A stretch of 64,000 nucleotides of DNA from positions 291,517-355,516 of the forward strand of contig JBMORM010000009.1 in assembly GCA_049322675.1 (NCBI GenBank), given 5' to 3'. A model generated the notes under the pieces. The model did not search any database, was not told the origin of the DNA, and saw only the letters and a program-made list of their open reading frames with translations. This document shows positions 8,426-52,404 of the stretch, piece after piece; the stretch's first letter is position 1, and every line of letters starts with the position of its first letter. The position numbers and the translations under genes are program-made. Source of the DNA: Patescibacteria group bacterium (lineage in GTDB: Bacteria; Patescibacteriota; JAHJAL01).

Positions 8426-8430
8426 GATTT

Positions 8431-8997: not shown

Positions 8998-9072
8998 TTT
9001 AATATTTTATAAAAAATTATTTGAGTAACAGAAACGGAATGTTCTTGATTAAAATATTTTTCTGCGATATTT

Positions 9073-9351
9073 TTACTCTTTGAAATCATACTTTTTGCGG
9101 ACGGCTAGGATGAGCAGGCCGTATTTGTCGATGTCTTCTTTGGTGTAAAATTTTTCGACTGCCTTGGTGTTCAATTTGTAGAGGAGTTCGCAATCGATTT
9201 TTCGGCCGGTGAGTTCTTGGCCTTTTTGTTCGAGCAGAACGATCGTGTCGCCGGGTTCGCACTCGAAATCAGCCAGGCGGACTTCAAATCTTTTGCGGCC
9301 GTCCAAAATATCTTCAAAGTAATTGGATTGGACTTTTTTAATGATTTCCAT
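9073..9351 (-). CDS. DUF3850 / ASCH-like (PUA-fold) small protein
   Basis: The pattern ..ILDGRKRFEVRLADFECEPGDTIVLLE.. matches ASCH/DUF3850-type domains. Confidence 0.5.
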   Translation of the reverse strand: MEIIKKVQSNYFEDILDGRKRFEVRLADFECEPGDTIVLLEQKGQELTGRKIDCELLYKLNTKAVEKFYTKEDIDKYGLLILAVRKKYDFKE

Positions 9352-9371
9352 GGTTGGATTTTTTAATAATA

Positions 9372-9953
9372 TTAATACTCAATCTCAATGCCAAAAGTAT
9401 CAAGCAAAGATAATACTTCGGGGTAGGAAAAGCGGGCGTGTTTTAACTTATTTTGTTTGGGGTCGAGGTAATAATTTTTGGCACCAATAAAGTTGGCGCT
9501 TTCCAAATTGGTATTTTGAAATTTACTGGCTTTGAAATCGGAACCGGAAAAATCACATTTGGTCAGATTGGTGTTGATAAAATCATTTTCCCGTAATTCG
9601 CAATGAATAAATTGGCTATCTTTGATATTGAGGTCGCTAAAATCACAGAGGGCGACAATACATTTTTGGAAAGACCATTTGATCAGGAAAGTATGTATAT
9701 TGGCAAAGACAATACCGAGGAGTTTGCAATTGGTAAAATTTACTCCCTGAAAACGACAGCCGTCAACTTTGATGTTGGAAAGATTGCAATCCAAAAAAGA
9801 ACAGTCCATGAAAGACGAACCGGCAAACGAACATTCGCTAAAATCGCATTTTTTGAAAACACAATTGGAAAATTCTTTGTTGCGTAAATCAGTTTTGGGA
9901 CAGACGATATTGGTAAAATTTTCTTTGTCAAAAGTGGAGGCAGTAAAGTTCAT
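9372..9953 (-). CDS. Pentapeptide-repeat protein (Qnr/MfpA-like)
   Basis: Continuous A(D/N)LxF-type pentapeptide repeats (CDFSECSFAGSSFMDCSFLDCNLSNIKVDGCRFQGVNFTNCKL...) span 193 aa. Confidence 0.75.
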   Translation of the reverse strand: MNFTASTFDKENFTNIVCPKTDLRNKEFSNCVFKKCDFSECSFAGSSFMDCSFLDCNLSNIKVDGCRFQGVNFTNCKLLGIVFANIHTFLIKWSFQKCIVALCDFSDLNIKDSQFIHCELRENDFINTNLTKCDFSGSDFKASKFQNTNLESANFIGAKNYYLDPKQNKLKHARFSYPEVLSLLDTFGIEIEY

Positions 9954-10050
9954 GGAAATGCAATTGAAAAAAATAGGCTCAGAATTTATTATAGCCTATT
10001 TTGACCAGGTTGAGACGTTTTATTACCTTGAGGCGAGCAAGGGTTATGAC

Positions 10051-10377
10051 TTAGCTTTTTTTCTTTTTTGGTTTGGGGGCGGGAAGTTCGGCGGCGGTGA
10101 TTTTGATCAACTTGCTGAGCCATTCATGATCTTCCAATTTGTCCTCAATCAGAAAACTCATTTTGGCGCCGGGGTAAGCCGGGGCTTCGACTATATTTTT
10201 GATGAATGAGCGTCCGGCAGAAGTTGGTTTAACAAAAAGTTGGTTGTCGCAAACAAGAGCGACTACTTTACCGTCGCAATAGATGGCGTACTCGCCAAAC
10301 ATTTTTCTAAATGTAATGGGGCCGGCATTTTCCATCTGGCTGACGACGTAATTTACAAAGTCTTGGTCGGAGGACAT
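10051..10377 (-). CDS. TfoX N-terminal domain protein
   Basis: ..RKMFGEYAIYCDGKVVALVCDNQLFVK.. matches the TfoX_N signature. A K-rich tail follows. Confidence 0.5.
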   Translation of the reverse strand: MSSDQDFVNYVVSQMENAGPITFRKMFGEYAIYCDGKVVALVCDNQLFVKPTSAGRSFIKNIVEAPAYPGAKMSFLIEDKLEDHEWLSKLIKITAAELPAPKPKKKKS

Positions 10378-10382
10378 AACGA

Positions 10383-11183
10383 TTAATTGATTGAATTATT
10401 TTGCTCACCGCCTTCTCCACCCCATTCCACCACGGTAAATCCTTTTCTTTCAAAAGGTTGAAAGACTTGGGGCTCAATTTCGATTTTTTCGTGAAGTGGT
10501 TTAAAAATCATAAAAACTCGCAGGATTGAATCCGGTTTGGGAGTAATTGTCAGAGGTGCCGTTTTTGTATATTGTTCATCGGCAAAATGAATGAGATTGT
10601 ATTTGTTGTCTTTCATTTTCGGATACCAATAAACGATAAATTCATTGTATTCTTTGGGAGTTAGGCCAATTTTGGCAAGAGTGTCTTGTAAAAATTCTCT
10701 AGTATTTTCTCCTTTGACGACAAAACCTTGAGAGAAGTCCCAATTGATCGTTTCTCTTGATTTACCTTCCCAGAAAAGATAGCTGTATTCATTATTATCA
10801 TCATGGTTAATGATTTTTCCGTCAGGATAAGCGGTTACTTTCCAACCATGAATAATATCATTATATTTTGGATATGAGGCAGTTATAGTTCCTGCATAAT
10901 TTAATTGCACGGTCACATCTTGCTTTTGTTCTGTATATAAATAGATTATTGGTTTGGCCGGAAGGCTAGGAACTGCGCGATAATTATCATTTAAACCATT
11001 TGTCGAATTTGGAATACTTACTGGCTTTTGGTTTTCTGGACACAATATTTCAATATCTAAAAAATTGGAAATGTACCCGGCTTTGGTCAGCCCCGCCCAA
11101 CTAAAGATTATTATTAGAAGAATGATGATAATGACCTGGCCAAATTTTATTTTTGGTTTTTTTGCTAAAGGTTTTTGTTCCAT
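10383..11183 (-). CDS. Hypothetical membrane-anchored or secreted protein
   Basis: An N-terminal TM helix (VIIIILLIIIFSWAGL) is followed by a soluble domain. Confidence 0.4.
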   Translation of the reverse strand: MEQKPLAKKPKIKFGQVIIIILLIIIFSWAGLTKAGYISNFLDIEILCPENQKPVSIPNSTNGLNDNYRAVPSLPAKPIIYLYTEQKQDVTVQLNYAGTITASYPKYNDIIHGWKVTAYPDGKIINHDDNNEYSYLFWEGKSRETINWDFSQGFVVKGENTREFLQDTLAKIGLTPKEYNEFIVYWYPKMKDNKYNLIHFADEQYTKTAPLTITPKPDSILRVFMIFKPLHEKIEIEPQVFQPFERKGFTVVEWGGEGGEQNNSIN

Positions 11184-11221
11184 GATTTTTGAAAATTATT
11201 TTGTAAATTTTAGAAATGACT

Positions 11222-11800
11222 TTAGTGATGATTTTGTTGATTGTTTTTTAGATATTCTATTAATAAACTAACATTATTGATATTGTTATTCCAAAATTGG
11301 ATCATTTGCTTTCTAGGTATTTCGGACTCGGGGTGATTGAGACCCTTTGGGATGAAAATTTCGTTTATCGAAGTTTGTCCTTGTTTTCCCGATTTGATAG
11401 AAATTTTGCCTTCAGCGGAAGAAAAGAATAAAACCGGATTTTGGCCGGGTTCGCAGTATGCCAGACATTCTTTAAAAAATACTTTCCGGTTATTTTTTCC
11501 AGTCATCAATCGCAAAAAATCCTGGGCGGTCAAATATTGATTGACGTATTTTATAAAAGGGCCAGGAAAACCATTTAATGATTCGATAAAGCAACCGGCG
11601 TCTGTCAAGAAAATAGGGTGTTTTAGAATATTCGCCGCAAATTTTGCTGAAAATGAAGCAATTTTCCCCAAGTCATCACTTTGTATTTCTGGAGTATCTA
11701 TAGTTTTTTGCAATAACTCAAAGCCGGAATCTTTGAACGCCACGAGGGCGGTTTGAAATTTATTTTTATTGCCGGTAATGAAGTAAATTTTTTTTAACAT
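11222..11800 (-). CDS. rdgB: Non-canonical purine NTP pyrophosphatase (Ham1/RdgB family)
   Basis: The N-terminus IYFITGNKNKFQTALVAF..TPEIQSDD is the Ham1 signature. The protein is 192 aa. Confidence 0.7.
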   Translation of the reverse strand: MLKKIYFITGNKNKFQTALVAFKDSGFELLQKTIDTPEIQSDDLGKIASFSAKFAANILKHPIFLTDAGCFIESLNGFPGPFIKYVNQYLTAQDFLRLMTGKNNRKVFFKECLAYCEPGQNPVLFFSSAEGKISIKSGKQGQTSINEIFIPKGLNHPESEIPRKQMIQFWNNNINNVSLLIEYLKNNQQNHH

Positions 11801-11838: not shown

Positions 11839-13104
11839 TCAATATTGTCTGATCAAATCTTCGAGCTGATCTCTTTTTCTAATCAAATAGTCTTGTCCTT
11901 GGGAATCGACCAGGACTTCGGCGGGTTTGAGGCGGCAGTTGTAGTTGGAACTCATGGACATACCATACGCGCCGGCGTCTAGAACTCCAAGAATATCGCC
12001 TTCGATAATTGTTGGGAGGGCGCGGTCTTTGGCGATGATATCGCCGCTTTCGCAAATGTTACCGACAACTGTAACGGTTTCGTTTTTGGTATTTTTTCTG
12101 GAAGTGTCACTGTAAATTTCCAGATCATGATAGGCGTCGTACATGATCGGGCGGACGAGAACATTGAAGCCGAGATCGGTGCCAACATATTTTTTACCGC
12201 CACTTTCTTTGATGGTGTGGACTTGACCTAGCAGGACTCCGCATTCGGCGACGACGTATCTGCCGGGTTCAATCATGATCGCTAGTTGTCGATTACTTTT
12301 TTTGATTTCGAGATCAAGTAATTTTTGGAGTTTTTTGCCAAATGATTTTAAATTCATGGGCTTTTCACCTCGTTCTTTGTGATACGGTATGCCAAAACCG
12401 CCGCCTAGATCGACAAATTCCAGGTCGGGAAAATCGGCGGCAAATGCGAGAATAAATGAGACGGCTTTTAGAAAAGAACTGGCAGACATAAAATGTGAGC
12501 CGATGTGTTGGTTTATCCCGACTAAACGAAGTTTATAACGAGTCAGAATTGCTTTTATTTCATCGATAAAGACGGGATTGATACCAAATTTGGTTTTGTC
12601 GCCGGCCGTAATAACTTTTTCATGGTGGCCGGCACCGATGCCCGGGTTGATACGAACGGCCACTTTGCCGCCCGGGTTTGAACGGCCGTAACGTTCGAGT
12701 TGAGACAGAGAATCGGCGCTAAATAAAACACCGGTTTTGACGGCATAAGTTATCTCGTCATCGGAAACATTGTTGCCGACAAAGAAAATTTCTTCCGGTT
12801 TGTAGCCGGCTTGCAACTCGAGAAATATTTCTCCGGCCGACATGGCGTCAACTGACAATCCCTCGGAACGAACAATGCGCAACAATGAAGGATTGGTATT
12901 GGCTTTGGCGGAATAGTTGACACGGAAATTGGGGTAAGAAATAAGGTTTTTCAAATCGCGGCAACGTTGGCGGAGAATATTTTCATTGTAAACATATAAT
13001 GGGGAACCATATTTTTTGATAAGATCAACGGGGTTGGTTTGACCATAAAATGAATTGGCTTTGGTCCAGATTTCGTGGATGTATATTGAATTATTTTTGT
13101 CCAT
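11839..13104 (-). CDS. lysA: Diaminopimelate decarboxylase (PLP-dependent, Orn/DAP/Arg decarboxylase family)
   Basis: A PLP-lysine block is present (YSAKANTNPSLLRIV). The 421-aa length, a Gly-rich loop DLGGGFGI and a C-terminal beta-domain fit lysA. Confidence 0.7.
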   Translation of the reverse strand: MDKNNSIYIHEIWTKANSFYGQTNPVDLIKKYGSPLYVYNENILRQRCRDLKNLISYPNFRVNYSAKANTNPSLLRIVRSEGLSVDAMSAGEIFLELQAGYKPEEIFFVGNNVSDDEITYAVKTGVLFSADSLSQLERYGRSNPGGKVAVRINPGIGAGHHEKVITAGDKTKFGINPVFIDEIKAILTRYKLRLVGINQHIGSHFMSASSFLKAVSFILAFAADFPDLEFVDLGGGFGIPYHKERGEKPMNLKSFGKKLQKLLDLEIKKSNRQLAIMIEPGRYVVAECGVLLGQVHTIKESGGKKYVGTDLGFNVLVRPIMYDAYHDLEIYSDTSRKNTKNETVTVVGNICESGDIIAKDRALPTIIEGDILGVLDAGAYGMSMSSNYNCRLKPAEVLVDSQGQDYLIRKRDQLEDLIRQY

Positions 13105-14783: not shown

Positions 14784-14801
14784 AATATTAAATTCCCAAT
14801 T

Positions 14802-14913
14802 TTCAAGGCACAATTTCCAATAAATTCTCAATTTCCAATTTTCAAACGGATTTATTTTTTGAAATTGATCATTGGAAATTTTTTGGAAGCTGGAAATTGG
14901 GAATTGGAAATTT
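14802..14913. repeat. TTCCAAT/ATTGGAA-rich intergenic palindromic repeat (copy A)
   Basis: An imperfect inverted repeat built from ATTTCCAA units flanks a central spacer. It belongs to the family seen again at 15706, 24036, 40250, 45968, 48020, 49140 and 52292. Confidence 0.6.
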
Positions 14914-15705: not shown

Positions 15706-15845
15706 TAATTCCCAATTTCCAATTCTCAATATTCAAAAAATGTCCAATTTCCAAACGAATGCCAAAAAGAATCATGAAACCAAATTAGTTTGGAAATTGT
15801 GCTTTGGAAATTTATTAGAAATTGAGAATTGAAAATTGGAAATTA
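15706..15845. repeat. TTCCAAT-rich intergenic palindromic repeat (copy B)
   Basis: The left arm cccaatttccaattctcaatattcaaaaaatgtccaatttccaaa mirrors the right arm tttggaaattgtgctttggaaatttattagaaattgagaattgaaaattggaaatt. Confidence 0.6.
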
Positions 15846-24035: not shown

Positions 24036-24112
24036 AATTTTCAATTTTCAATTTCCAATTTCCACTAAATGATCAATTTTCAATGAGAATGATTAGTTTG
24101 GAAATTATTAAT
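24036..24112. repeat. TTCCAAT-rich intergenic palindromic repeat (copy C)
   Basis: ttttcaattttcaatttccaatttccac...gattagtttggaaattattaattgaag. Confidence 0.5.
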
Positions 24113-24126
24113 TGAAGATTTTGTTA

Positions 24127-27069
24127 TTATTTTACGACAATGTTTACTATCTTTCCCTTAATATAAATTTCTTTGACAATTTCTTTGCCGGTGATAAACT
24201 TTGTTACTTCGGGAGTTGATTTGGCAAGGGAAATGATTGTTTTTTCTTCAAGGTCGGCGGCAATAACAATTTCCGCCCGTCTTTTGCCGTTAACTTGAAT
24301 AGGAATTGTCAGAAGTTCTTCTTTGACTAGATCAGGATCGTATTGCGGCCAAGTCATGAGATTGATTGAATTGTTGTGACCCAATTGATGCCAAAGTTCT
24401 TCGCAAACATGGGGACAAATTGGAGAAAGCAATAACAATAAACCTTCCAGGGCTTGTTTCCAAGCCAGGGGATCTTTGGCAAGAGGAAATTTTTGTTTCA
24501 GATCGTTGAGGTCGTTAACAAAAATCATCAGATTGGAAACAACGGTGTTGAAGCTAAATTTGTCATACAAGGAGCTGATGCGCTTGATGTTTTTGTGTAC
24601 AAGAGAAGCCAATTCGACTTCTTTTATTTCTGACGAGTCATAGAGCCATTGGTCGGGGGTTTCTTGGATCTTTTCGTTTACCAAAATAATTTCTTGTGCT
24701 AACGTCCACAGTTTGAATAAAAATCGATTGACGCCTTTGACGCCGTTGGTATCCCAAGGAATGGCATCGGTATAAGGACCCATAAACATTTCATAGCCAC
24801 GCAAAGTATCGGCTCCGTATTCATCAATTACTTCTATGGGATTGATAACATTGCCCTTGGATTTGGACATTTTTATACCACCTTCTCCAAGAACCATGCC
24901 ATGAGCGATGCGTTTTTGGTAAGGTTCGGAAGTCGGCACCAGGCCTTGATCAAAGAGAAATTTGTGCCAGAAACGGGAATACAGAAGATGCAAAGTAACA
25001 TGTTCCATTCCACCATTGTAAATATCGACCGGAGACCAATATTGTAATTTTTTGTAATCAGCAAAAATATCCTCATTATGAGGGTCGCAATAGCGAAGAT
25101 AATACCAGGAAGATCCTGCCCAGTTGGGCATAGTGTCGGTTTCGCGTTTGGCCGGACCACCGCAAGTTGGACAAGTAGTATTTACCCACTCGTCAATCGA
25201 GGCCAAAGGTGATTCGCCGGTATCGGTTGGTTGGTAATTTTTGACGTCTGGCAAGATTAAAGGCAAATCTTTTTCTGGCAAAGGAATAGTGCCACATTGT
25301 TCACAATAAACAATTGGAATCGGTTCGCCCCAATAATGCTGGCGGGAAAAAACCCAATCGCGGAGATTGTAATTGACTTTCTTTGATCCTAGTTTTTGTT
25401 CTTGTAACCAAGTAATTATTTTCTCTGTGGCAATAGCCGAATCCAATCCGGAAAATTCGCCCGAATCATGAGTGACACCATAATCAGAGAATAGTTTGGA
25501 GTTATTAAAAAATCTTTCTTTCCAGATATTAAATTCTGAGCAATTTAGATTTGGATCATGTTCCAATTCATCCCAAGTAAGCCAAATTAGATCGTATTTT
25601 TCTTGCTCATCGGCAGAGATGGATTGCTGTTGATTATCTATAAGCTCAAAGACCAAAGCAGTAAATAATGCTTGTCGGTTTACGTCTTTATGGGCGGCAT
25701 AAAAATTGGACTGAACTGGTAATCCTAGCGTTTTGATAAATTTTAAATTAAAAAATCCCGTTTCTTCGGCGATCTCTCTTTGAGCGGCAGCGATAGTATC
25801 CTCTCCTTCTTCGATACCTCCTACAATTAATGTAGTCCAAGGAAATTTTTTATGTCGAAGGCACAATATTTTTTTTGTCTTTGGATCAATAACAATGGCC
25901 TGGATTGCTTGTCGAAATACAGTAGATTTATCGTCTCGCAGAGGATGTTTGGTATCAATTATTTTGGGAATAATTACTTCTTTGATAGGCAAATCGTATT
26001 TGGAAGCAAAATCCCAATCGCGTTGATCGTGAGCAGGGACGGCCATGATGGCGCCGGTGCCATAGTCGGCCAGAACATAATCGGCAATCCAAATTGGTAT
26101 TTTCTCATTATTGATTGGATTAACCGCATAAGAACCAGTAAAAACACCTGTTTTTTCTTTATTTTCTTGGCGTTCGATATTGCTTTTGGCAAGCGAAAGC
26201 TTGACATACTTGTCCACATCTTTTTTTTGTTCGGGAGTAATTATTTTTTCAATCAATTCATGCTCAGGTGCCAAAACCATAAAAGTAACGCCAAATAAGG
26301 TGTCAGGTCTGGTTGTAAAAACTTCTAAATATTTATCTTTGAGTTTTGAGTTTTGAATTTTGAATTTGATACTTGCCCCTTCCGATCTTCCGATCCAGTT
26401 GGCTTGTTGATCTTTAATCGCAGGCAGATAATCAACATCCTTGAGACCATTTAATAATTTGTCCGCGTAGGCAGTAATTTTGAGCATCCATTGAGAAAGC
26501 TCTTTTTTGGTTGTGGGCGTGCCGCAACGCTCGCAATTGCCGGCAATTACTTCTTCGTTGGCTAAGCCCGTTTTACAAGAAGGACACCAATTGATTGGCA
26601 TCTTTTTTTTGTAAGCCAAACCGGCTTTGTAAAGTTGCAGAAATATCCATTGGGTCCACTTGTAGTATTCAGGTTTGGAGGTGTCAATTTCCCTCGACCA
26701 ATCGAAGGAAAAACCGACACGTTGAGCTTGTTTTTTAAAATTGGCGGTATTTTTGGCGGTAACGATTGTCGGATTGATCCCGTGTTTGATGGCATAATTT
26801 TCGGTTGGCAGGCCAAAAGCATCCCAGCCAAAGGGGAAAAGAACATTGTAACCATCCATACGACTTTTGCGTGCGACGATATCTAAAGCAGTATAAGGAC
26901 GGCAATGACCGACGTGCAGACCTTCGCCGGAGGCGTAGGGAAACTCGATCAAAATATATTTTTTGGGCTTGGAGGAAGAGTCTTGGCCTTGATATATTTT
27001 TTCTTCTTCCCAGACAGATTGCCATTTGGGCTCTATTTCTTGCGGATTATAATTTTTTTGTTTATCCAT
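24127..27069 (-). CDS. leuS: Leucyl-tRNA synthetase carrying an internal Nudix-domain insertion
   Basis: Present are the HIGH-class motif (HVGH), KMSKS, an editing-domain block TTRPDTLFGVTFMVLAPEH and the conserved C-terminal domain. At 980 aa it is longer than the roughly 860 aa of E. coli LeuRS. Confidence 0.9.
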   Translation of the reverse strand: MDKQKNYNPQEIEPKWQSVWEEEKIYQGQDSSSKPKKYILIEFPYASGEGLHVGHCRPYTALDIVARKSRMDGYNVLFPFGWDAFGLPTENYAIKHGINPTIVTAKNTANFKKQAQRVGFSFDWSREIDTSKPEYYKWTQWIFLQLYKAGLAYKKKMPINWCPSCKTGLANEEVIAGNCERCGTPTTKKELSQWMLKITAYADKLLNGLKDVDYLPAIKDQQANWIGRSEGASIKFKIQNSKLKDKYLEVFTTRPDTLFGVTFMVLAPEHELIEKIITPEQKKDVDKYVKLSLAKSNIERQENKEKTGVFTGSYAVNPINNEKIPIWIADYVLADYGTGAIMAVPAHDQRDWDFASKYDLPIKEVIIPKIIDTKHPLRDDKSTVFRQAIQAIVIDPKTKKILCLRHKKFPWTTLIVGGIEEGEDTIAAAQREIAEETGFFNLKFIKTLGLPVQSNFYAAHKDVNRQALFTALVFELIDNQQQSISADEQEKYDLIWLTWDELEHDPNLNCSEFNIWKERFFNNSKLFSDYGVTHDSGEFSGLDSAIATEKIITWLQEQKLGSKKVNYNLRDWVFSRQHYWGEPIPIVYCEQCGTIPLPEKDLPLILPDVKNYQPTDTGESPLASIDEWVNTTCPTCGGPAKRETDTMPNWAGSSWYYLRYCDPHNEDIFADYKKLQYWSPVDIYNGGMEHVTLHLLYSRFWHKFLFDQGLVPTSEPYQKRIAHGMVLGEGGIKMSKSKGNVINPIEVIDEYGADTLRGYEMFMGPYTDAIPWDTNGVKGVNRFLFKLWTLAQEIILVNEKIQETPDQWLYDSSEIKEVELASLVHKNIKRISSLYDKFSFNTVVSNLMIFVNDLNDLKQKFPLAKDPLAWKQALEGLLLLLSPICPHVCEELWHQLGHNNSINLMTWPQYDPDLVKEELLTIPIQVNGKRRAEIVIAADLEEKTIISLAKSTPEVTKFITGKEIVKEIYIKGKIVNIVVK
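25510..25947 (-). other. Nudix hydrolase domain inserted in-frame within leuS
   Basis: A perfect Nudix box GGIEEGEDTIAAAQREIAEETGF is encoded at + 25757-25821, inside about 140 extra residues between ..IKEVII and ..SGEFSGLD. Confidence 0.7.
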
Positions 27070-29268: not shown

Positions 29269-30174
29269 ATGAAAATTGGAATTTTTGGTTCAAAAAATAC
29301 TCCTGAATCTCAATTGTTGGAAAAAGCAGCGATTGAGAAAGGACATACAGCCGTCAGATTTTCGCAATATGATTTTACTTTCGAATTGCGCAACAATATT
29401 TTTTCGATTAGATCGGAAATTGATTTTGCCGACTTGGATATTGTATTAATCAGAGGAATAGACAGACAGTACAATTTTGATAATAGAAGTTTTAATAAAG
29501 CAAATGAGGCATTGATTACCCTCAGGTACTTAAGAGAAGAATTGGGTATTCCTCTGGTTGATGAATATCGGGTATTGGATCCATTTTTTTATCAATCCGG
29601 TAAAATGATGACAGCACAAAAGTTGGCTCAGGAAAAAATTCCTCAACCTGATGCTTGGCAGTTTGGTTCAAAAGAAAAACTGAAAGAAGCTATAAATAGT
29701 TTTTCCTTTCCTTTGATTGCCAAAAGTCCCAATGGAAGAAAGGGGTTGGGAATCTACAAGTTGGAATGTCAGGCTGATTTGGAAAAATTGTTGAGCGATC
29801 TGACAACAGATAGTTTTCCTTATATTATTCAGGAATATCTTCCTTCGGATGGGGATATTCGGGTTTTTTGCGTCGGTTACAAAGCATTGGGCGCGATGAA
29901 AAGGTTTATTCCAACAGGCGACTTTCGAGCAAATATATCTCAGGGCGGCAGAGGAGAAAAAATTGTTTTACCAAAAGAAGCGATAGAAATTGCCGAAAAG
30001 GCTGCCGAGGTGACTAAAACGGAAATTGCCGGCGTGGATTTGATTGAGTCAAATGGCAAATACTATGTGATAGAGGTCAATCAAGCGCCGCAGTTTAGAG
30101 GTTTTATTGAATATACTGGTATCAATCCGGCTAACGCGATCGTGGATTATCTGGAGAAGAAAGCAAAAAAGTGA
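29269..30174 (+). CDS. RimK-family ATP-grasp ligase (alpha-L-glutamate ligase-like)
   Basis: GDIRVFCVGYKALGAMKRFIPTGDFRANISQGGRGEKI and GVDLIESNGKYYVIEVNQAPQF align block-for-block with E. coli RimK. The start is 18 nt after the upstream gene's stop. Confidence 0.75.
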   Translation: MKIGIFGSKNTPESQLLEKAAIEKGHTAVRFSQYDFTFELRNNIFSIRSEIDFADLDIVLIRGIDRQYNFDNRSFNKANEALITLRYLREELGIPLVDEYRVLDPFFYQSGKMMTAQKLAQEKIPQPDAWQFGSKEKLKEAINSFSFPLIAKSPNGRKGLGIYKLECQADLEKLLSDLTTDSFPYIIQEYLPSDGDIRVFCVGYKALGAMKRFIPTGDFRANISQGGRGEKIVLPKEAIEIAEKAAEVTKTEIAGVDLIESNGKYYVIEVNQAPQFRGFIEYTGINPANAIVDYLEKKAKK

Positions 30175-30178
30175 TTTT

Positions 30179-31063
30179 TTACTTTTGGATTTTTTGCTGG
30201 AGATAATCAATAATCTCGGCCGCCACGTCAATACTGGTGGCCTTTTTGAAACCGTCAAAATAACAATATCGATTGATTTCGATAATATACGGTTGGCCTT
30301 GATGAAAAAGAATATCGATTCCGGCGTGTTCGCATTTGACCGCTGAGGAGGCGCGGAGTGCCAGATCGGCAATTTCCGGAGGAACGGAATAATTTTCGAC
30401 TTGATTGCCCAATGAATAATTGGTGCGAAATTCCTGTGGATTTATAGAAATTCTTTTCATGCCACCGAGTACTTTTTTACCCAAAGTAATAATGCGTAAA
30501 TCATAATCGATCGGCCAGTATTTTTGAGCCAAATAAAGACGATGTTTGGCTCTTTTTTGATATCTGGGGAGATTTTCAAGATCGGATGAATTATTAATTT
30601 TATAAACTGTCAGACCGCAAGTACCGTTGATGCATTTGTAAATAAATGGCAGACCAAATGTTTGAGAAATGTAGCGAAAATCATTTTTTACAGTATCCAA
30701 GGTGGCCGGAATGATGGGAATTGATTTTTCGGCTAGCAGAGCATATTGGATAGCTTTGTCAAAGAGCGGATAATCGATAATAGAGTCTTGATTGAGTAGA
30801 TATATATTGTGTTTTTTGGCGTAAATTGCCAGTAGATGAGAAATATGAGTAAGATTGACCGGACGGCGCAGGATAAGACAATCATAGGTTGACAAAGGCA
30901 AATCGGGAACAAGTATTTGGAAACCGTCTTGATTGTTAAAAATTAGTTTAAGATCACGATAGCTGCAGTGATCGATTTGATGATTTTTTGACTGGCCGGC
31001 AGCGATCAAACTTTCCACCGGTTGATTGTTTTTTTTGATTAAACTGACGATAAGAATTTTCAT
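30179..31063 (-). CDS. Second RimK-family ATP-grasp ligase, convergent with the first
   Basis: The blocks DYDLRIITLGKKVLGGMKRI..EFRTNYSLGNQ and AGIDILFHQGQPYIIEINRYCYFDGF are present. Confidence 0.7.
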   Translation of the reverse strand: MKILIVSLIKKNNQPVESLIAAGQSKNHQIDHCSYRDLKLIFNNQDGFQILVPDLPLSTYDCLILRRPVNLTHISHLLAIYAKKHNIYLLNQDSIIDYPLFDKAIQYALLAEKSIPIIPATLDTVKNDFRYISQTFGLPFIYKCINGTCGLTVYKINNSSDLENLPRYQKRAKHRLYLAQKYWPIDYDLRIITLGKKVLGGMKRISINPQEFRTNYSLGNQVENYSVPPEIADLALRASSAVKCEHAGIDILFHQGQPYIIEINRYCYFDGFKKATSIDVAAEIIDYLQQKIQK

Positions 31064-35738: not shown

Positions 35739-36581
35739 ATGAGTACGAGCGACAAAATAAAAAGTGAACAGAAAATGTATTTTAACCTTGAATATGTCGA
35801 GCGGATTATTGCCAGGCAAAGAGATTATGAAAATAATCGCGAGCACATCGGGACAACAAGAATTTTTCAATCTATTGCATTGACTCATCTAAAAAAGAAC
35901 GAGGCAAAAAGTATAATGATAGCCAATTTGGGGGCAGGCGCTTGCATTGATGAATTGGGAGATCTGTTTGACTATTTGTCGGCAAGAGCAGGCAAGATCT
36001 CTTGGGTAGATCATTCTCCTTTCATGATTAAATTTGCCAAAGAATATTTGCCAAAAAAATATCTTGATACTGTGGAAATTTATCAGCAAGATTGGTTAAC
36101 TTGGCTGAATACACGTATCGACGAGACCCTGGATTTTGTTTTTATGGAATATACTTTTAATTACGTTGATGATTTGGACAAATTTTTTAAGCTTTTGGCG
36201 AAAAAGATGTCCAAGAAAGCAATATTTGCCGCTAATCCCAATTTGTATCCTCGGGGTTTGAAAAGTGAAACAACAAATGCATTTTATTCAATTAACGGAC
36301 AAATGATCGCCGATGGCACAGTGGAATATCCGGTTAGTGGCGATGTGATCGGCGTGCATTTTAAAACTGCCGTAAATTCCAGGCAAACTATTACTTCTTA
36401 CAAGATTACATACCTGGATAAAAACGATATTTTGAAAGCCGCGACAAAATACTTTAAAAAAGCTACGATTTTGGACAATTGGCAACAGAACAAAGAATAT
36501 GTGAATGAATTTGATAGATTGTCAAAAAATCAGAAACTGGATTTTAATAAAGATAAAATATATTTGATTATGGAAAAATAA
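35739..36581 (+). CDS. Putative class I SAM-dependent methyltransferase-like protein
   Basis: A glycine-rich motif IANLGAGACIDE (motif I-like) is present. The call rests on weak similarity only. Confidence 0.3.
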   Translation: MSTSDKIKSEQKMYFNLEYVERIIARQRDYENNREHIGTTRIFQSIALTHLKKNEAKSIMIANLGAGACIDELGDLFDYLSARAGKISWVDHSPFMIKFAKEYLPKKYLDTVEIYQQDWLTWLNTRIDETLDFVFMEYTFNYVDDLDKFFKLLAKKMSKKAIFAANPNLYPRGLKSETTNAFYSINGQMIADGTVEYPVSGDVIGVHFKTAVNSRQTITSYKITYLDKNDILKAATKYFKKATILDNWQQNKEYVNEFDRLSKNQKLDFNKDKIYLIMEK

Positions 36582-36641
36582 GCGGAATAATTTTTTCTTC
36601 AGAAAATTTTTAATTGTATTTAATTTTTTGTTTAATTTTTT

Positions 36642-36717
36642 ATCATCCCCTATTTTTTATTGTTATTTGGTGAACTTTAAAAATTCACCAAAAAAATAAA
36701 AAAGGGGATGATTTTTT
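36642..36717 (+). terminator. Long perfect palindrome plus T-run. It serves as a terminator for the upstream gene and also overlaps the Shine-Dalgarno of the next gene.
   Basis: The palindrome is atcatcccctattttttatt..ttggtgaa-ctttaaaaa-ttcaccaa..aataaaaaaggggatgat, followed by tttttt and then the ATG at 36718. The SD AAGGGGA lies inside the 3' arm. Confidence 0.5.
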
Positions 36718-39700
36718 ATGGCAAAAACCAAAACGATAATTTTGATTATCTGTATTTTGGTATTTTCAGGTTTGACTGATCAAATGGGAATTTGCGGGGA
36801 AAAAATTTTGTATGACGTGCCATACCGCAATCAGGTTATTGATTTTCCTGGTTGGTCGCAAAATTGGGCTTCGTGCGGTTATACTTCCACGTTGATGAAT
36901 TTATTGTATTGTGAGGCGTTACCATCCGGGATGTCGGAACAATCATTGATCGAGAAAATGTACACAGACTGTTCTATAACGACTGAAGATGGCTCGGTGA
37001 TTTTTTACTACGAAAAATTGGATGAATTTTGTGAACAAAATATCCCCGAGTATGATCTGGAAGTGCGATTTATCCGCGACGACTTTGAAAATAAGATCAA
37101 GAAAACGATTGATGACGAAATGCCGGTAATATGCGGTACATATATTTTTGGCAATGTCGGGCATGTGATTTTGATCGTCGGTTATGACGATAACAATTGG
37201 ATTGTGCACGATCCGGCCAACGACTGGGGACAAGAACGCTGGCCAGACGGAGGTTTTACTTGGGAAAATGCCGATTTTGTTCGTTTTCCAATCGGTAGTT
37301 TTACGATTTTGTATGGAGCCAGTATTTTTTCGGAAAACAGTAAAGAATTTGCCGCCAAGATAGTCGAACAAAGCCCGACGATAGTTTTGTCAAACGAGGG
37401 AGAAATGAAGATGCTGTGGGTAAAGTTGAAAAATAATGGTACTAGTGATTGGTTGCAGGAAAAAATCCATTTGGGAACTTATCAACCGCTTGATCGTTTG
37501 TGCGGATTGGTGGCAAAATCTGATCCAGAAAAATATCGGTGGCTAGGAACGAAAAACAGACTGATGATGGAACAAAAAAAGGTAGAGCCAGGGCAAACGG
37601 CAATTTTTGGAATACCAATGGAGAAAAATAATTTCGTAGGAAATTTTCCCGAGAGTTTTCGTTTGATTAACGACGATCAAAACGGTCGCTGGTTTGGACC
37701 AACAATCTGCTGGAACATCGAGTGCTTGCCGACAGCGAATATCAATCAGCCGGTGAGTATTTTTGCCGGCAAATACTGCTTTCATACCGGCGATCTCCAC
37801 AATCACAGTTCTTGGTCGGGCGAGAAGACAACCGTTGCCCAACTGGTCGAACAAGGTAAAACAAATGGTTTAAAATTTTTGGGCATTACGGATAAAGCGG
37901 AAAAATTGGGAGACAATACTAATATTTGCCAATATCTGTCGGAGATAAAAAAGGTGGCGGATGAAAAGCAATATATTTTGCTGGCAGGCATAGAATACAA
38001 TGTGACAAATTACGGCAACGAAATTTATAGTCCGAACGAATCTGGGATAAAGGCGATCGGGTTGGGCTACAATAATTTGCAACCACAAGATTTGCCAGAT
38101 TGGTTTCCTTGGGAGACAAAGGGAAAAAAAGTGACTTGGGAAGAATTGGTTGACTGGCATTTTCAGCATGGGTTGCCACTTTTTATCGCTCATCCGTTGG
38201 ATAAGGGCAAAAACGGATGGTCGGCAAAGGAATTGATTGAAAAAAGTATGATATCTAAATTAGAAAAATTGGCTGGAATCGAGATTTTTGCAAAAATTCA
38301 TTTTTCATCTTTGTTTGCAATCAACGGCAATAATATGATTGGATTGTTTAATCCCGGTTTGAATTTGGAGAATTCGATCGAATTGTACAAAAACTTTCTG
38401 GGACCGATAGGGATAGGGGTGTTTGGTGGGGAAAATCCGGCAAAAACAATAATTGCCACGGAATCATCTCAACTTAAAACCGAGCAAATAATCGAGGCAA
38501 TATCCAAGAAAAAAACTGTTGCTGTCAACAATACCGCAGCCATTGATTTTATTAAAATATCCAATAAGGAATGGGCGCCGGGAAATTGGGGACAAACGAT
38601 AATATCGGGAGGACAGGTAAAGATCGAGGGGCAAACCCTATGGTTGCCAAACTCCAGTCAACAAAAGTGTTTATATATTATAAGAAACAACAAATTGGTT
38701 CACAAACAGTTGATTGAGGGTAGAGAGAGAATTAATTTTTCTTTTACTGACAACTGCCATAAACCGGGAAAATACGGTTATCAAATCGCAATTTGCGAAA
38801 AGAGAGCAAATCAAGCCGAAGAAGGGAAATTGTTCACTAGTCCGATTTACGTCGAAGTCAAAGATGAAGATCAGGTGGAAAATCAGATGGAAACGGTAAG
38901 TGAACAACAAAAAGAATTGCTTGTTTTTACACCGACAATTCATCTGGGCGATTCGTTTTATGAGGGCGAGATCAATCGGGGTTTTAAACGAGAAAAAGCC
39001 GAATCTGTTTTGGTTACAAAGATTTTTTCTTTATCTTCTGAGGATTTAGTTAATATATCTGATTGTCAGTTGCAACTAGAGCTGTGCGGGGCGCAACTGG
39101 AAAAAAATAGCAATCAAGGTAATCCTATCGTCATCAATTGCCAAAAAATCGGCGAATGTCTGATCCCCAATGAAGATCCCCAAAAAAATAATTTGGTTTA
39201 CAAATACGCCGTTCCTTTGTCCTGTTTGCAAACTGGAAACAACGAGCTATTTATCCGATCTTTGCCTCGAGCTTACTTTTTACGAAATGGAAAGACATTT
39301 ATTGATTTTGATGATTTTGAGATCAGAGACATCAAACTGGTTTTTTATTATGGTAAAAATAATTTCCGACCAGATAAAAATGCCGTTGTGTCAGCCAAAA
39401 AGATACCCTTGAAAAACGGGAGCGAAGAGTTGTCATTTGTCTCGGATCAAGACTTGGATGATTTTTCTCAAGAATCAAAAAAAATAATTGATGATTTTGA
39501 ACAAAAGGGCGGAAAATTTGTTGTGGACAAAGATCCTCGATACCCACAATTTTTAGCTCTGATCGAGCCAATTGTAGAAAATATTGAAAAACTACCGCAA
39601 AGGACAACAATAAAATGGAAATTTTTTGAATCAAATACACTGGATCCGATCGCCTTGCCCGATCGGACAATATTGGTGCCAACAGGGTTGTTGACCAACG

Positions 39701-40182
39701 AAAAGGAACTTCCGGAAAATAAAATATTTCCGATAGTATCCGCAATTTTTCAGTCAGACTTAGGGATAAGTCACAAACAAGCAAATCGGAAAGATTTGGC
39801 CGGTGTTTTAGGTTTTTTGGGGTCGATGCTGACAAAAAATGAAAACATTGTCGCCAAATATACTGGTATGGGTTTATTGTTGGCAGGATCATTATCTTTG
39901 AAATCAGAAGATGAAGACTTTTATATCGCTGACGCCTATGCTTATGATTGGATGAAACAAAATGGCCTGGGATCCGATCAGGCTTTTTCTCTGTTGGATG
40001 CCGCGGGCAGACTAGAAAAATACCCAGGTAATGATCAGAAATATAATATTTTGGCGCCGCCGGCAAACAAAAGGTTGGAGGCGTTGACAAATTATATTTA
40101 TTGGCAGAATACTTATCCTTTGCCAATAACACCAGATATAATCGATTGGGAGAGGGCAGTAGAGAAAAAAGATAAAAATTAA
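36718..40182 (+). CDS. Giant secreted multidomain protein with an N-terminal C39-like papain-fold cysteine peptidase domain and a PHP-family phosphoesterase domain
   Basis: The signal peptide is MAKTKTIILIICILVFSGLTDQ. A Cys/His pair typical of the Peptidase_C39-like fold is present (..NWASCGYTS.. and ..GHVILIVGYDDNNWIVHDPAN..). A PHP motif follows (FHTGDLHNHSSWSGE). About 700 aa at the C-terminus are unassigned. Confidence 0.55.
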   Translation: MAKTKTIILIICILVFSGLTDQMGICGEKILYDVPYRNQVIDFPGWSQNWASCGYTSTLMNLLYCEALPSGMSEQSLIEKMYTDCSITTEDGSVIFYYEKLDEFCEQNIPEYDLEVRFIRDDFENKIKKTIDDEMPVICGTYIFGNVGHVILIVGYDDNNWIVHDPANDWGQERWPDGGFTWENADFVRFPIGSFTILYGASIFSENSKEFAAKIVEQSPTIVLSNEGEMKMLWVKLKNNGTSDWLQEKIHLGTYQPLDRLCGLVAKSDPEKYRWLGTKNRLMMEQKKVEPGQTAIFGIPMEKNNFVGNFPESFRLINDDQNGRWFGPTICWNIECLPTANINQPVSIFAGKYCFHTGDLHNHSSWSGEKTTVAQLVEQGKTNGLKFLGITDKAEKLGDNTNICQYLSEIKKVADEKQYILLAGIEYNVTNYGNEIYSPNESGIKAIGLGYNNLQPQDLPDWFPWETKGKKVTWEELVDWHFQHGLPLFIAHPLDKGKNGWSAKELIEKSMISKLEKLAGIEIFAKIHFSSLFAINGNNMIGLFNPGLNLENSIELYKNFLGPIGIGVFGGENPAKTIIATESSQLKTEQIIEAISKKKTVAVNNTAAIDFIKISNKEWAPGNWGQTIISGGQVKIEGQTLWLPNSSQQKCLYIIRNNKLVHKQLIEGRERINFSFTDNCHKPGKYGYQIAICEKRANQAEEGKLFTSPIYVEVKDEDQVENQMETVSEQQKELLVFTPTIHLGDSFYEGEINRGFKREKAESVLVTKIFSLSSEDLVNISDCQLQLELCGAQLEKNSNQGNPIVINCQKIGECLIPNEDPQKNNLVYKYAVPLSCLQTGNNELFIRSLPRAYFLRNGKTFIDFDDFEIRDIKLVFYYGKNNFRPDKNAVVSAKKIPLKNGSEELSFVSDQDLDDFSQESKKIIDDFEQKGGKFVVDKDPRYPQFLALIEPIVENIEKLPQRTTIKWKFFESNTLDPIALPDRTILVPTGLLTNEKELPENKIFPIVSAIFQSDLGISHKQANRKDLAGVLGFLGSMLTKNENIVAKYTGMGLLLAGSLSLKSEDEDFYIADAYAYDWMKQNGLGSDQAFSLLDAAGRLEKYPGNDQKYNILAPPANKRLEALTNYIYWQNTYPLPITPDIIDWERAVEKKDKN

Positions 40183-40212
40183 TATCAATATTAAAATCGA
40201 TCGCAAATATTG

Positions 40213-40242
40213 ACCTCGGATATAAATATCTGAGGTTTTTTA
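40213..40242 (+). terminator. Rho-independent terminator
   Basis: acctcggata-taaa-tatctgaggt is followed by TTTTTT. Confidence 0.5.
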
Positions 40243-40249
40243 TTAAATT

Positions 40250-40375
40250 CTAATTTCCAATTCTCAATTTCCAAAAAATGTCCAATTTTCAATTTTCAAA
40301 CATTATTGAATTTAACTTGGAAATTGGACATTTTTTGGAAATTGAAAATTGTGAATTGGAAATTTTGTGCAGCTA
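40250..40375. repeat. TTCCAAT-rich intergenic palindromic repeat (copy D)
   Basis: aatttccaattctcaatttccaaaaaatgtccaattttcaattttcaaac mirrors cttggaaattggacattttttggaaattgaaaattgtgaattggaaatt. Confidence 0.6.
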
Positions 40376-42443: not shown

Positions 42444-43136
42444 ATGGGAAATTTTAATCGAGGCAATAGATCAGGCGGCGGTAGAGGTTTTGGTGGACGC
42501 AGATTTGGTGGTGGCGGCGGAGGAAGAGGTATGGGACGACCGCAGATGCATCAAGCTACTTGCAGTGAATGCGGAGAGGAATGCGAAGTTCCTTTTCGGC
42601 CAAGCAATGACAAACCAGTATATTGCGATGATTGTTTTGGAGAAAAAAAAGGTAGTAGTTTAAAAAGATCGGATAGAAGAGATGCTGATTTTGGGAATAG
42701 GTCAAAGTTTAATGATAAAAAAATGCATGATGCTATCTGTGATAGTTGCGGAGATCGATGTCAGGTTCCTTTCAAACCAACCAGCGGCAAACCAGTGTTT
42801 TGCAGTGAATGTTTTGAAAAAGAGGGGGGCGGGGCAAGAAAAAATAAGAGAAATGACAGTAGGTCAGAACAAGCAGAAATTATTGATAACAGCTATGAAA
42901 TTGGACAGATCAAGGCAGAATTATTCGCTTTAAATAGCAAAGTGGATAATATATTGCATATTTTAAATAAAACAGAGACGACCGAGGAACCAAATAAGAA
43001 GGAAGTTAAAAAGCCAGAAAAAAAGGAAGTTACCAAAAAAAGTGGCAAAAAGAATAAGACGGAAAATACTGAAAAACAGTCTATCGGGAAAAAGAAAACA
43101 ACGGTCAAAAAGACAAAGAAATCGAAGAGAAAATAG
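42444..43136 (+). CDS. RGG-rich protein with a tandem CxxCG zinc ribbon and a lysine-rich tail (putative nucleic-acid binding)
   Basis: The N-terminus is GGGRGFGGRRFGGGGGGRG. The two repeats are CSECGEECEVPFRPSNDKPVYCDDCF and CDSCGDRCQVPFKPTSGKPVFCSECF. The C-terminal tail is K-rich and histone-H1-like. Confidence 0.55.
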   Translation: MGNFNRGNRSGGGRGFGGRRFGGGGGGRGMGRPQMHQATCSECGEECEVPFRPSNDKPVYCDDCFGEKKGSSLKRSDRRDADFGNRSKFNDKKMHDAICDSCGDRCQVPFKPTSGKPVFCSECFEKEGGGARKNKRNDSRSEQAEIIDNSYEIGQIKAELFALNSKVDNILHILNKTETTEEPNKKEVKKPEKKEVTKKSGKKNKTENTEKQSIGKKKTTVKKTKKSKRK

Positions 43137-45489: not shown

Positions 45490-45967
45490 TCCCAATGACT
45501 TTTTGCGACAAAAAATGAAAAAAGTCGAGGTGTTTGATCGCAACTTGCAGCAATTTGCTCGTGATTTTATTGAGACTATGTTGGAAAAAGATGGGGTGGG
45601 ATTGGCCGCAACCCAGATTGGCGCAAACAGGAGAATTATCGCTATCAATTTGGATAAAAAAGAGGGTTACCCGGATAGTTTGATTATGCCGATGGTTTTG
45701 GTTAATCCGGAGATTTTGGAAGCATCAGCTCAACAGGTTGAAATGGATGAGGCCTGCTTGAGCGTACCGGGCCTGGTCGGATCAGTAATCCGACCAGAAG
45801 AAGTGATCGTTACCTATCAAGATTTAAATGGAAAACAATATCATGTTGATGCCGATGGTTGGCTGGCAAGAGTATTACAACACGAGATTGATCATCTAAA
45901 CGGAATTTTATTTATCGATAGAATTTCAGACAAGAAAAAATTGCGGAAATATGAGGTGAAAGAATAA
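45473..45967 (+). CDS. def: Peptide deformylase
   Basis: GVGLAATQIG, EACLSVPG and QHEIDHLNG are present. The start is set at the internal Met (MEILTNPNDFLRQ) rather than the track's longer ORF. Confidence 0.85.
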   Translation: MEILTNPNDFLRQKMKKVEVFDRNLQQFARDFIETMLEKDGVGLAATQIGANRRIIAINLDKKEGYPDSLIMPMVLVNPEILEASAQQVEMDEACLSVPGLVGSVIRPEEVIVTYQDLNGKQYHVDADGWLARVLQHEIDHLNGILFIDRISDKKKLRKYEVKE

Positions 45968-46078
45968 TTTCCGGTTTCCAATTTCCAAAAAATTTCCAAT
46001 GATTCCCTCGCGGGATCGAGTTGCTGCTGACAATTTTCAATGAAAATCCCGTTTGAAATTGGATATTGAGAATTTCTT
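45968..46078. repeat. TTCCAAT repeat variant with the conserved GC core, copy 2 of 2
   Basis: tttccaatttccaaaaaatttccaatgattCCCTCGCGGGAtcgagtTGCTGCTGACAATTTtcaatGAAAATCCCgTTTGAAATTgg. The matching copy is at 40998-41090. Confidence 0.5.
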
Positions 46079-46101: not shown

Positions 46102-47037
46102 ATGAATATTTGCGATCAAAAAATCGTTTTTATGGGAACGCCCGAGTTTGCGGCGGGGATTTTGCAATCTCTGCTGAATAACAATTTTAACGTTGTCGGG
46201 GTGGTGACGGCACCGGATCGGCCAAAGGGGCGGGGACAAAAGATAGCAATGTCCGAAGTAAAGGAATTGGCGTTGAAAAACAAATTAGTTGTTTGGCAAC
46301 CGGATAAAGTTAGATCCGAAGATTTTTTTCAGAAGCTAAAAGATATACTACCGGATTTGATCATAGTGGCCGCATATGGTCAGATAATACCAAAGAAGAT
46401 ATTGGAATTGCCCAAATTTGGGTGCATTAACGTGCATGCTTCCCTGCTCCCAAAATATCGCGGTGCTTCGCCGATTCATTATGTCTTGCTCAATGGCGAA
46501 CAGGAAACCGGGGTTACTATTATGAAGATGGATGAGGGAATGGATACGGGGGAGATAATTTCCAATTTCCAATTTCCAATTTCCAATAAAGACAATCTGA
46601 TTTCTTTATACGAAAGGTTAGCTAAAATAGGAGCGGAATTGTTGGTCAAGACAATACCGGATTATATAGCGGGGAAAATTGAATTGAAAAAGCAGGACAA
46701 TAATCTGGCGAGCTACACGAAGATAATTACCAAGTCTGACGGTAAAATTGATTGGAATATGAAGGGACGAGATATTTTTAATAAAATCAGAGCATTTAAC
46801 CCCTGGCCGGGTACTTTTACCAATTGGCAAGAAAGAAAATTGAAGATTCATTCTGCAAGGTTGACTGAGAGGAAATTTTCACCAGGTGAGGTTATAGTTG
46901 AAGACAAAAAAATTTACGTGGGAACGGACGATTTTGCTCTGGAAATTATAGATTTACAACTTGAGGGAAGAAAAACTGTCTCAGCCGAGAATTTTGTGTT
47001 GGGAAATAAGGAGATAGATAAAGCCAAGTTGTTATAA
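46102..47037 (+). CDS. fmt: Methionyl-tRNA formyltransferase
   Basis: KIVFMGTPEFAAGIL, NVHASLLPKYRGASPI and a C-terminal domain are present. Confidence 0.85.
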   Translation: MNICDQKIVFMGTPEFAAGILQSLLNNNFNVVGVVTAPDRPKGRGQKIAMSEVKELALKNKLVVWQPDKVRSEDFFQKLKDILPDLIIVAAYGQIIPKKILELPKFGCINVHASLLPKYRGASPIHYVLLNGEQETGVTIMKMDEGMDTGEIISNFQFPISNKDNLISLYERLAKIGAELLVKTIPDYIAGKIELKKQDNNLASYTKIITKSDGKIDWNMKGRDIFNKIRAFNPWPGTFTNWQERKLKIHSARLTERKFSPGEVIVEDKKIYVGTDDFALEIIDLQLEGRKTVSAENFVLGNKEIDKAKLL

Positions 47038-48019: not shown

Positions 48020-48144
48020 AAATTTTCAATTCTCAATTTCCAATTTCCAAAAAATTTCCAATGATCAATTTCAGATGGATGATCTGCTTGGAAATTGGAA
48101 ATTGAGATTTTTTTGGAAATTGATCATTGGAAATTGGAAATTAA
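48020..48144. repeat. TTCCAAT-rich intergenic palindromic repeat (copy F), ending at the start codon of the next gene
   Basis: A nested perfect inverted repeat (ttccaatgatcaatttc / gaaattgatcattggaa) is present. The element abuts the ATG at 48145. Confidence 0.6.
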
Positions 48145-49139: not shown

Positions 49140-49262
49140 CAATTTTCAATTCTCAATTTCCAAAAAATGTCCAATTTCCAATTTTCAATGAATGCGATCT
49201 GTTTGGAAATTGTGCCTTGGAAATTTTTTGGAAATTGGAAAAAGGAAATTGGAGATTTATTA
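49140..49262. repeat. TTCCAAT-rich intergenic palindromic repeat (copy G)
   Basis: caattttcaattctcaatttccaaaaaatgtccaatttccaattttcaatg ... tttggaaattgtgccttggaaattttttggaaattggaaaaaggaaattgg. Confidence 0.6.
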
Positions 49263-52291: not shown

Positions 52292-52404
52292 TAAATTTCC
52301 AATTTCCAAGGCTCAATTTCCAAAAAATTTCCAATAGTCAATTTCCAAATGATATAATTCATTGAAAATTGGACATTTTTTGGAAACTGGAAATTGGAAA
52401 TTTA
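52292..52404. repeat. TTCCAAT-rich intergenic palindromic repeat (copy H), just upstream of secA
   Basis: gtaaatttccaatttccaaggctcaatttccaaaaaatttccaatagtcaatttccaaatg ... attggacattttttggaaactggaaattggaaattt. Confidence 0.6.

Follow-up and report, generated by a model that had tools for sequence, protein, structure and literature searches.

The window, a stretch of 64,000 nucleotides from contig JBMORM010000009.1 of a Patescibacteria group bacterium, contains a complete gene of 1154 codons plus stop at positions 36718–40182 of the forward strand, on which all features of this gene described below are located. It starts with ATG, and its extent agrees exactly with the open reading frame (ORF) given in the initial annotation, whose three quoted motifs are found at residues 49–63 (NWASCGYTSTLMNLL), 148–168 (GHVILIVGYDDNNWIVHDPAN) and 355–369 (FHTGDLHNHSSWSGE) of the protein. 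A putative N-terminal export segment precedes six domains: a Peptidase_C39_2 domain, an immunoglobulin (Ig)-like β-sandwich, a degenerate PHP domain, a further β-sandwich, a jelly roll resembling carbohydrate-binding modules (CBMs) and a domain with the fold of M48 metallopeptidases. We consider it reasonably probable that the protein is a modular hydrolase exported by Sec to the cell surface or the extracellular space, in which the C39_2 site is the only intact catalytic centre and the remaining domains act in targeting and as a scaffold.

The ORF is certainly a real gene. When 1.84 billion representatives were searched exhaustively by HMMER with the C-terminal module of the protein, eight relatives were retrieved at E<1e-30. 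In comparison with the orthologue P0001 (locus L002, 90% amino-acid identity), the ratio of nonsynonymous to synonymous substitution rates (dN/dS) is 0.116 over the whole length, and every folded domain is under purifying selection (dN/dS 0.04–0.15). The gene also has its own Shine-Dalgarno-like site and terminator-like hairpin. The former, AGGGGA at 36703–36708, was read directly from the sequence and is located 9 nt 5' of the ATG. The latter resembles an intrinsic terminator with a T-run (40212–40247, 30 nt past the stop codon); the hairpin proper spans 40212–40237 with an 11-bp stem and is conserved in L002. An AT-rich spacer of 136 nt separates the gene from an upstream methyltransferase gene, and a weak σ70-like site is present at 36564–36591. 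The gene looks like an independent, monocistronic transcription unit.

Residues 1–27 (36718–36798) form a predicted export signal or signal anchor consisting of MAKTK, a 14-residue hydrophobic core and a polar c-region. The hydrophobic segment at residues ~5–25, with Lys3 and Lys5 ahead of it, is the sole transmembrane-like segment of the protein and supports the secretion signal that had been proposed initially. Most full-length relatives carry an equivalent segment. Its dN/dS of ~1.1 is as expected for a signal peptide. From this single N-terminal segment and the SecA encoded in the window, export via Sec, by way of either a signal or an anchor, can be soundly predicted. A lipoprotein reading of the sequence 'MGIC' was rejected, because the Cys is not conserved and the relatives have no lipobox.

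The Peptidase_C39_2 domain, which has a papain fold, comprises residues 28–208 (36799–37341). Pfam PF13529 matches residues 33–167 with E=1e-13 and 52.5 bits (cut-off 24 bits) and also matches all nine aligned family members (best E=2.3e-18), which places the domain in this family. The papain-fold domain of the initial annotation is thus confirmed, and the Cys and His noted there are joined by two further putative catalytic residues: Gln39, Cys53, His149 and Asp165 are the same in each of the ten members with a C39_2 domain. The Cys and the His align with C50 and H178 of a 'putative C39-like peptidase' (pdb entry 3erv), with a weak E-value. Asp165 follows His149 by 16 residues, which we take to be the spacing typical of C39-type peptidases. 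The AlphaFold2 (AF2) model has predicted local distance difference test (pLDDT) values of 67–84 across this domain. With a dN/dS of 0.044, it is the most constrained domain of the protein. Invariant Gln, Cys, His and Asp residues in combination with the strongest constraint are the pattern expected of a live active site. Most likely, the C39_2 site is the one credible active site of the protein.

In the papain-like classification, C39_2 and C39 are sister families (PMC10318531), and this kinship would fit a classical C39 leader-peptide protease that removes double-glycine leaders of secreted peptides or bacteriocins. However, the Pfam match is to PF13529, and for C39 proper (PF03412) no match was reported at E≤1. 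The association of C39 proper with ABC transporters is not found either: the protein contains no ABC or transmembrane domain, and neither transporter nor precursor-peptide genes are present among its neighbours. Furthermore, the C39_2 domain would reside on the exported side of the N-terminal signal and not at the cytoplasmic face of a transporter. A leader protease is largely refuted by this architecture and is most improbable.

The region following the C39_2 domain (residues 209–340, 37342–37737) is an Ig-like β-sandwich, possibly of the NBR1-like type, and is all-β in the AF2 model. Its match to PF16158 is weak (17.4 bits against a cut-off of 28, E=0.0066), with three of the nine members matching at E≤0.1. 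The region retrieves P0008, a Patescibacteria protein with SpoIID, Amidase_2 and PF16158 domains (E=6e-20), and P0009, which also has PF16158 (E=2e-18).

The PHP domain comprises residues 350–600 (37765–38517). A domain search, which the initial annotation had proposed as a check, gives a divided result: C39_2 scores above its cut-off, whereas the PHP domain of the window protein alone matches PF02811 only at residues 359–431 with E=7e-4 and 20.3–22.4 bits, below the cut-off of 26.4. The family makes up for this. PF02811 matches all seven long members (best E=6e-10), the family profile matches the PHP domains of PolX in the PDB (E=1.5e-5) and Foldseek aligns the modeled domain with the PHP domain of RNase AM (7ug9, TM-score 0.50) as well as with the PHP structures 9etk and 3e0f. 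The homology is therefore secure at the family level, and the domain belongs to the PHP superfamily, as had been claimed. From the Foldseek search with the full-length model, only the matches of the PHP domain and the small sandwiches were used. Others, such as those to Xyn30D, complement and transglutaminase, dominated the list and were discarded as spurious alignments of multiple sandwiches, and a whole-protein phmmer search against the PDB returned only noise. Membership in the CehA/McbA subfamily (NF038032) is not reached, as the window protein scores 41.2 bits for this model and its relatives 16–42 bits at a cut-off of 80, although residues 360–777 of P0003 (PHP and sandwich) cover model positions 2–314 of 315 below this cut-off. 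A search outside the family with a profile of the intact PHP domain and sandwich returned only generic matches to the PHP N-terminus of PolX and no closer relatives.

Metal-binding PHP domains have nine coordinating residues in the order H, H, D/H, H, E, H, C/H, D/N and H (PMC3666897). The equivalents in ttPolX are Q342, H344, D349, H374, E413, H440, H468, D529 and H531, and the exchanges H344A, H374A, H468A and D529A abolish its activity (PMC2665239). Positions 1–4 were mapped by HMMER alignment to ttPolX and drPolX. The window protein retains four of the nine ligands, namely H361 and H363 (positions 1 and 2), E426 (position 5) and H492 (position 7). Position 3 is replaced by G368, position 4 by K393 and position 6 by K445, and for positions 8 and 9 the SDYHG block (DxH) is deleted together with ~55 following residues. 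P0001 and P0002 share this pattern of losses, with Arg in P0001 at the site of K445 and Glu in P0002 at the site of K393; P0002 additionally lacks position 7 (AQP). P0003–P0006 and P0011, on the other hand, keep all nine ligands.

The initial annotation described the protein as a peptidase plus phosphoesterase. Both activities in one extracellular enzyme, cutting for example a peptide and a phosphodiester such as a teichoic-acid or capsule linkage within one surface polymer, would draw on a PHP homology that is real, on the remaining HxH motif, E426 and H492, and on purifying selection on the PHP region. Its dN/dS of 0.147 is about three times the C39_2 value and far below neutrality, which argues for a maintained domain and not for decaying sequence. 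Five of the nine metal ligands are gone, however, including the equivalents of H374 and D529 of ttPolX, so the domain is probably no phosphoesterase. A loss of five ligands of the same kind leaves E. coli Pol III with a metal-free PHP domain. Moreover, the core function can do without PHP chemistry, since a short form of the protein at the same genomic position is devoid of the domain. Two active sites are plausible for P0003–P0006 and P0011 and improbable for the window protein, whose PHP domain is best read as an inactive variant. It is probably a maintained domain that is non-catalytic or at least non-canonical.

The PHP domain is followed by a β-sandwich (residues 601–722, 38518–38883) that is all-β in the AF2 model, is assigned to no family and has a dN/dS of 0.096. 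In the relatives with an intact PHP site (P0003–P0006 and P0011, for example at 8001–11606 of locus L005), this sandwich carries invariant RYHE and QFHE motifs; both are lost in the clade of the window protein, which itself has NNTA and LWLP in their place. This suggests a contribution of the sandwich to the active site of PHP or to its substrate pocket in these relatives, and the two motifs add to the plausibility of a second activity there.

Residues 730–885 (38905–39372) form a jelly roll of the galactose-binding-domain-like or CBM-like type with the invariant sequence HLGDS...FDDFE. The fold was recognised structurally; comparison of the profile with PDB sequences gave nothing meaningful. 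About 95 representatives are sequence relatives of this module, in M23 peptidases and in proteins containing CarboxypepD_reg. The jelly roll probably binds a glycan.

The C-terminal domain (residues 910–1154, 39445–40179) is a pseudo-enzyme with the M48 metallopeptidase fold. Among the matches of the exhaustive search with the C-terminal module are five genuine M48 proteins (Pfam M48 E=1e-27 to 1e-35), and profile-profile comparison by hhalign establishes homology to PF01435 with a probability of 98.6% and E=8e-16 over 226 columns. The defining motifs of M48 enzymes are HExxH, a Glu that binds zinc and the plug HPx4R (PMC7950410). In the family, HExxH aligns to Q1012-S-D-L-G1016 of the window protein and is not found in any member. 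The zinc-binding Glu of ExxAD, the third ligand, is replaced by Lys (SLSLK...IAD) and the plug reads APx4R (A-P-P-A-N-K-R), so that only AD, Pro and Arg are kept from these two motifs. None of the four zinc ligands is present in any family member, and the domain thus cannot be a zinc peptidase. Its most conserved block is the edge strand DPIALPDRTILVPTGL, which matches NAFALPGG.I....GL in M48. The edge strand of BepA takes up substrate through strand addition, and even the chaperone-like function that is independent of proteolysis requires it (PMC8423444). By analogy, the M48-fold domain probably holds an extended peptide rather than cutting it. The 'large unknown domain' of ~700 residues in the initial annotation hence resolves into the rest of the PHP domain, the β-sandwich, the CBM-like jelly roll and this pseudo-metallopeptidase.

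Since two of the three enzyme folds are demonstrably degenerate, and many β-sandwich and CBM-like modules are present as is typical of adhesins, the protein might be a non-enzymatic adhesin or scaffold: each of the three domains derived from enzymes would serve for binding, and the C39_2 site would have no catalytic use. Against this, the four putative catalytic residues of C39_2 do not vary among the ten members, even between lineages in which more than 50% of positions differ, and this domain is the most constrained one. Such a purely binding role is quite improbable.

The family is tiny and has a very narrow distribution. Seven relatives that share C39_2 and further regions specific to the family were found by a word-indexed search of 5.8 billion clusters: five long forms of full length, one truncated protein (P0006) and one short form (P0007). 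A word-indexed profile search with the C-terminal module, in which 8000 candidates were scored, returned two proteins. The genomes encoding the relatives are metagenome-assembled genomes (MAGs) of Patescibacteria (candidate phyla radiation, CPR), in one case a MAG labelled 'uncultured bacterium'. These records place the organism among the Patescibacteria, in line with the initial impression of a host- or partner-dependent genome. At each of the five loci whose flanking DNA is long enough, the gene is located between the gene for isoleucyl-tRNA synthetase (IleRS) and a small gene for a protein with metallo-β-lactamase (MBL) fold (Lactamase_B_3). This order is kept even though the IleRS proteins at the loci of the relatives are only 42–47% identical to that of the window, which points to an old, vertically inherited locus and not to a mobile cassette. 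The homologue and context checks that had been proposed initially thus yield a small Patescibacteria family with conserved synteny.

The short forms P0007 (639 residues) and P0010 (629 residues) consist only of the C39_2 domain, the jelly roll and the M48-like domain, and the block of Ig-like domain, PHP domain and sandwich is absent. Thus, the invariant core of the family is C39_2, jelly roll and pseudo-M48. P0010 occupies the same position between the IleRS and MBL genes, so that one locus exists in three states across related genomes: the PHP site is intact, it is dead or the whole domain is missing. In a neighbor-joining tree of 539 gap-free columns of the shared domains, midpoint-rooted and without support values, the short forms are placed within the long forms as sister to the clade of P0003 and the window protein, and P0004, P0005 and P0011 branch outside. 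The simplest reading, which is tentative, is that the long form with an active PHP domain is ancestral and that two losses of PHP function followed, in one lineage through deletion of the Ig-PHP-sandwich block and in that of the window protein through decay of the active site.

Taken together, the favoured reading of a hydrolase with a single live site suggests the following mechanism. The protein would be exported by Sec and would either be displayed at the surface of a monoderm-type envelope or be released from it. The CBM-like jelly roll and the Ig-like domain would target it to a glycan-containing polymer, the groove of the pseudo-M48 domain would hold an extended peptide and the Cys-His-Asp site of C39_2 would cleave a substrate associated with the envelope at a peptide or amide bond. 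The PHP domain would take part as a non-catalytic variant module, in which two of the lost ligands are now Lys. An association with the cell wall is suggested by three observations. C39_2 is among the enzymatically active domains of endolysins from phages of Gram-positive bacteria (PMC8223927), the accessory domains also occur in Amidase_2/SpoIID and M23 hydrolases and the organism makes its own peptidoglycan, as PBP2 and an S11 carboxypeptidase are encoded in the window.

The initial annotation had proposed a candidate surface or effector enzyme that could act on components of the cell wall or capsule. Which wall would be acted upon bears on a further explanation, namely that the protein is a host-directed effector of an episymbiont that breaches or digests the host wall at peptidoglycan stem peptides, for attachment or nutrient scavenging, and does not act on its own envelope. 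The Patescibacteria lineage and the predicted export signal would suit such an effector, as would the use of C39_2 as a lytic domain in phage endolysins and the occurrence of the Ig-like and jelly-roll domains in Amidase_2/SpoIID and M23 cell-wall hydrolases. However, the conserved position between the IleRS and MBL genes, in genomes that have diverged to 42–47% IleRS identity, is a housekeeping neighbourhood and argues for an old, vertically inherited function and against a mobile effector. The neighbours of the gene include none of the immunity-like, secretion-system or mobile-element type, the strongly purifying selection bears no trace of an arms race and the peptidoglycan synthesis of the organism makes a self-directed role equally available. 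Housekeeping synteny, the lack of immunity or secretion genes nearby and strong purifying selection lead us to lean towards a role in self-maintenance or housekeeping; a host-directed effector is somewhat unlikely.

Several points weigh against the single-site reading. The full-length AF2 model is poor (pLDDT 59.5, predicted TM-score (pTM) 0.33), and C39_2 is a poorly characterised family. PHP positions 5–9 were assigned from their order and their invariance in the intact relatives and not by alignment to a solved structure, and H361, H363, E426 and H492 may form a residual one-metal site. Additionally, the conserved D-x-G-I-[ST]-x-x-Q-x-x-R motif together with APx4R at the former M48 site could reflect a new activity and not mere binding. 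In an extended form of this last proposal, the universally conserved residues of the motif on the former HExxH helix, of the edge strand and of APx4R constitute a new metal-independent catalytic or high-affinity ligand site that works with C39_2. The protein would then be a lineage-specific tool of episymbiotic Patescibacteria for processing cell-wall peptides of the host or of their own, and the PHP domain an optional add-on lost twice, by deletion and by decay. This proposal is distinctly unlikely.

The window as a whole is ordinary core chromosome and encodes leucyl-tRNA synthetase (LeuRS), IleRS, SecA, PBP2, an S11 DD-carboxypeptidase, Fmt, Cmk and a DEAD helicase. None of the other ORFs in the window carries any of the six domains of the protein. 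The LeuRS gene (24127–27069, reverse strand) encodes a NUDIX domain (residues 386–504) inserted past the editing domain, an arrangement that is also annotated in the related contig L001 (968-residue product). Adjacent, convergent paralogues of the RimK-like ATP-grasp type are located at 29269–30174 (forward) and 30179–31063 (reverse). They share ~30% identity, the pair is conserved in L002 and the flanking proteins (669 and 424 residues) have no Pfam match. Downstream, at 42444–43136 (forward), a protein of 230 residues contains the treble-clef zinc finger zf_Tbcl_2 in two copies (PF23477, E=1e-33); relatives of it are kept downstream in loci L001, L005 and L006. Two polyamine genes are present in this reduced genome, both on the reverse strand. 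One (4973–6463) encodes 496 residues that begin with a long extension without Pfam match and end in a spermidine-synthase domain, and the other (11839–13104) an Orn/Arg/DAP decarboxylase.

Imperfect palindromes built from the heptamer units TTGGAAA/TTGRRAA are dispersed over the intergenic regions of the window. In most clusters, plus-strand copies come after those on the minus strand. The sites are 14791–14912, 15707–15844, 24036–24083, 40245–40364, 45966–46074, 48021–48142, 49141–49250 and 52294–52402; one further site lies inside an ORF (46557–46586). The pattern TTGGAAATTGRAMATT with at most two mismatches has 53 matches in the window, compared to 2.25 expected. The copy at 40245–40364 is located between the terminator of the C39_2 gene and the MBL-fold gene and has arms of 51 nt that are 86% complementary. 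The orthologous spacer of L002 is longer and similar only in part.

Patescibacteria depend on other cells, and their exported hydrolases, almost none of which have been characterised, are prime candidates for envelope upkeep or host exploitation. The protein described here should not be called a phosphoesterase, and its C-terminus should no longer be listed as unknown. It offers a clear and testable case in which one presumably live cysteine-peptidase site is joined to PHP and M48 folds that have turned non-catalytic. The orthologues with intact, dead and absent PHP at one locus are natural controls for the origin and retention of a pseudo-enzyme. The practical reach is limited by the very small size of the family.

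In the literature library that was searched, no description of this domain architecture was found; the architecture is unusual, as had been remarked initially. Every domain is of a known fold or superfamily; new is the lineage-restricted architecture with two pseudo-enzyme domains, and not the kind of system. The N-terminal domain resembles the Peptidase_C39_2 family in its HMM match above the cut-off, the aligned Cys and His, the upstream Gln, the Asp downstream of the His and, presumably, its extracytoplasmic location. Typical C39_2 members are single-domain proteins (PMC10318531), whereas here the domain heads a chain of 1154 residues with five further domains. The jelly roll has a fold like those of the PNGase F domain, the sugar-binding domain of GH2, the BcsB carbohydrate-binding domain, CBM6/29/35/36 and domain III of PL4. 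In contrast to known CBM-like jelly rolls, it has no significant match to a curated CBM or Pfam family, and HLGDS and FDDFE are family-specific. The M48 enzymes compared here, BepA/YfgC (6sar and 6ait), the Geobacter protein Q74D82 (3c37) and PF01435, stand alone or carry tetratricopeptide repeats, whereas the pseudo-M48 domain is fused behind a CBM-like jelly roll.

The best-scoring PHP subfamilies are CehA/McbA and PolX/RNase AM, with ~40 bits and no subfamily membership. The closest parallel to the PHP domain is found in E. coli Pol III α, whose PHP domain is inactive but structurally retained, has lost five of the nine ligands and is metal-free (PMC3666897). In both proteins the fold is kept under selection after a loss of this extent and lost ligands are replaced by basic side chains, Lys here and mostly Arg in Pol III α. 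The context differs, as the domain belongs to a replicase in Pol III α and to a presumably exported hydrolase here. Furthermore, in the window protein the last two ligands are deleted, and intact and dead versions of the domain coexist among close orthologues.

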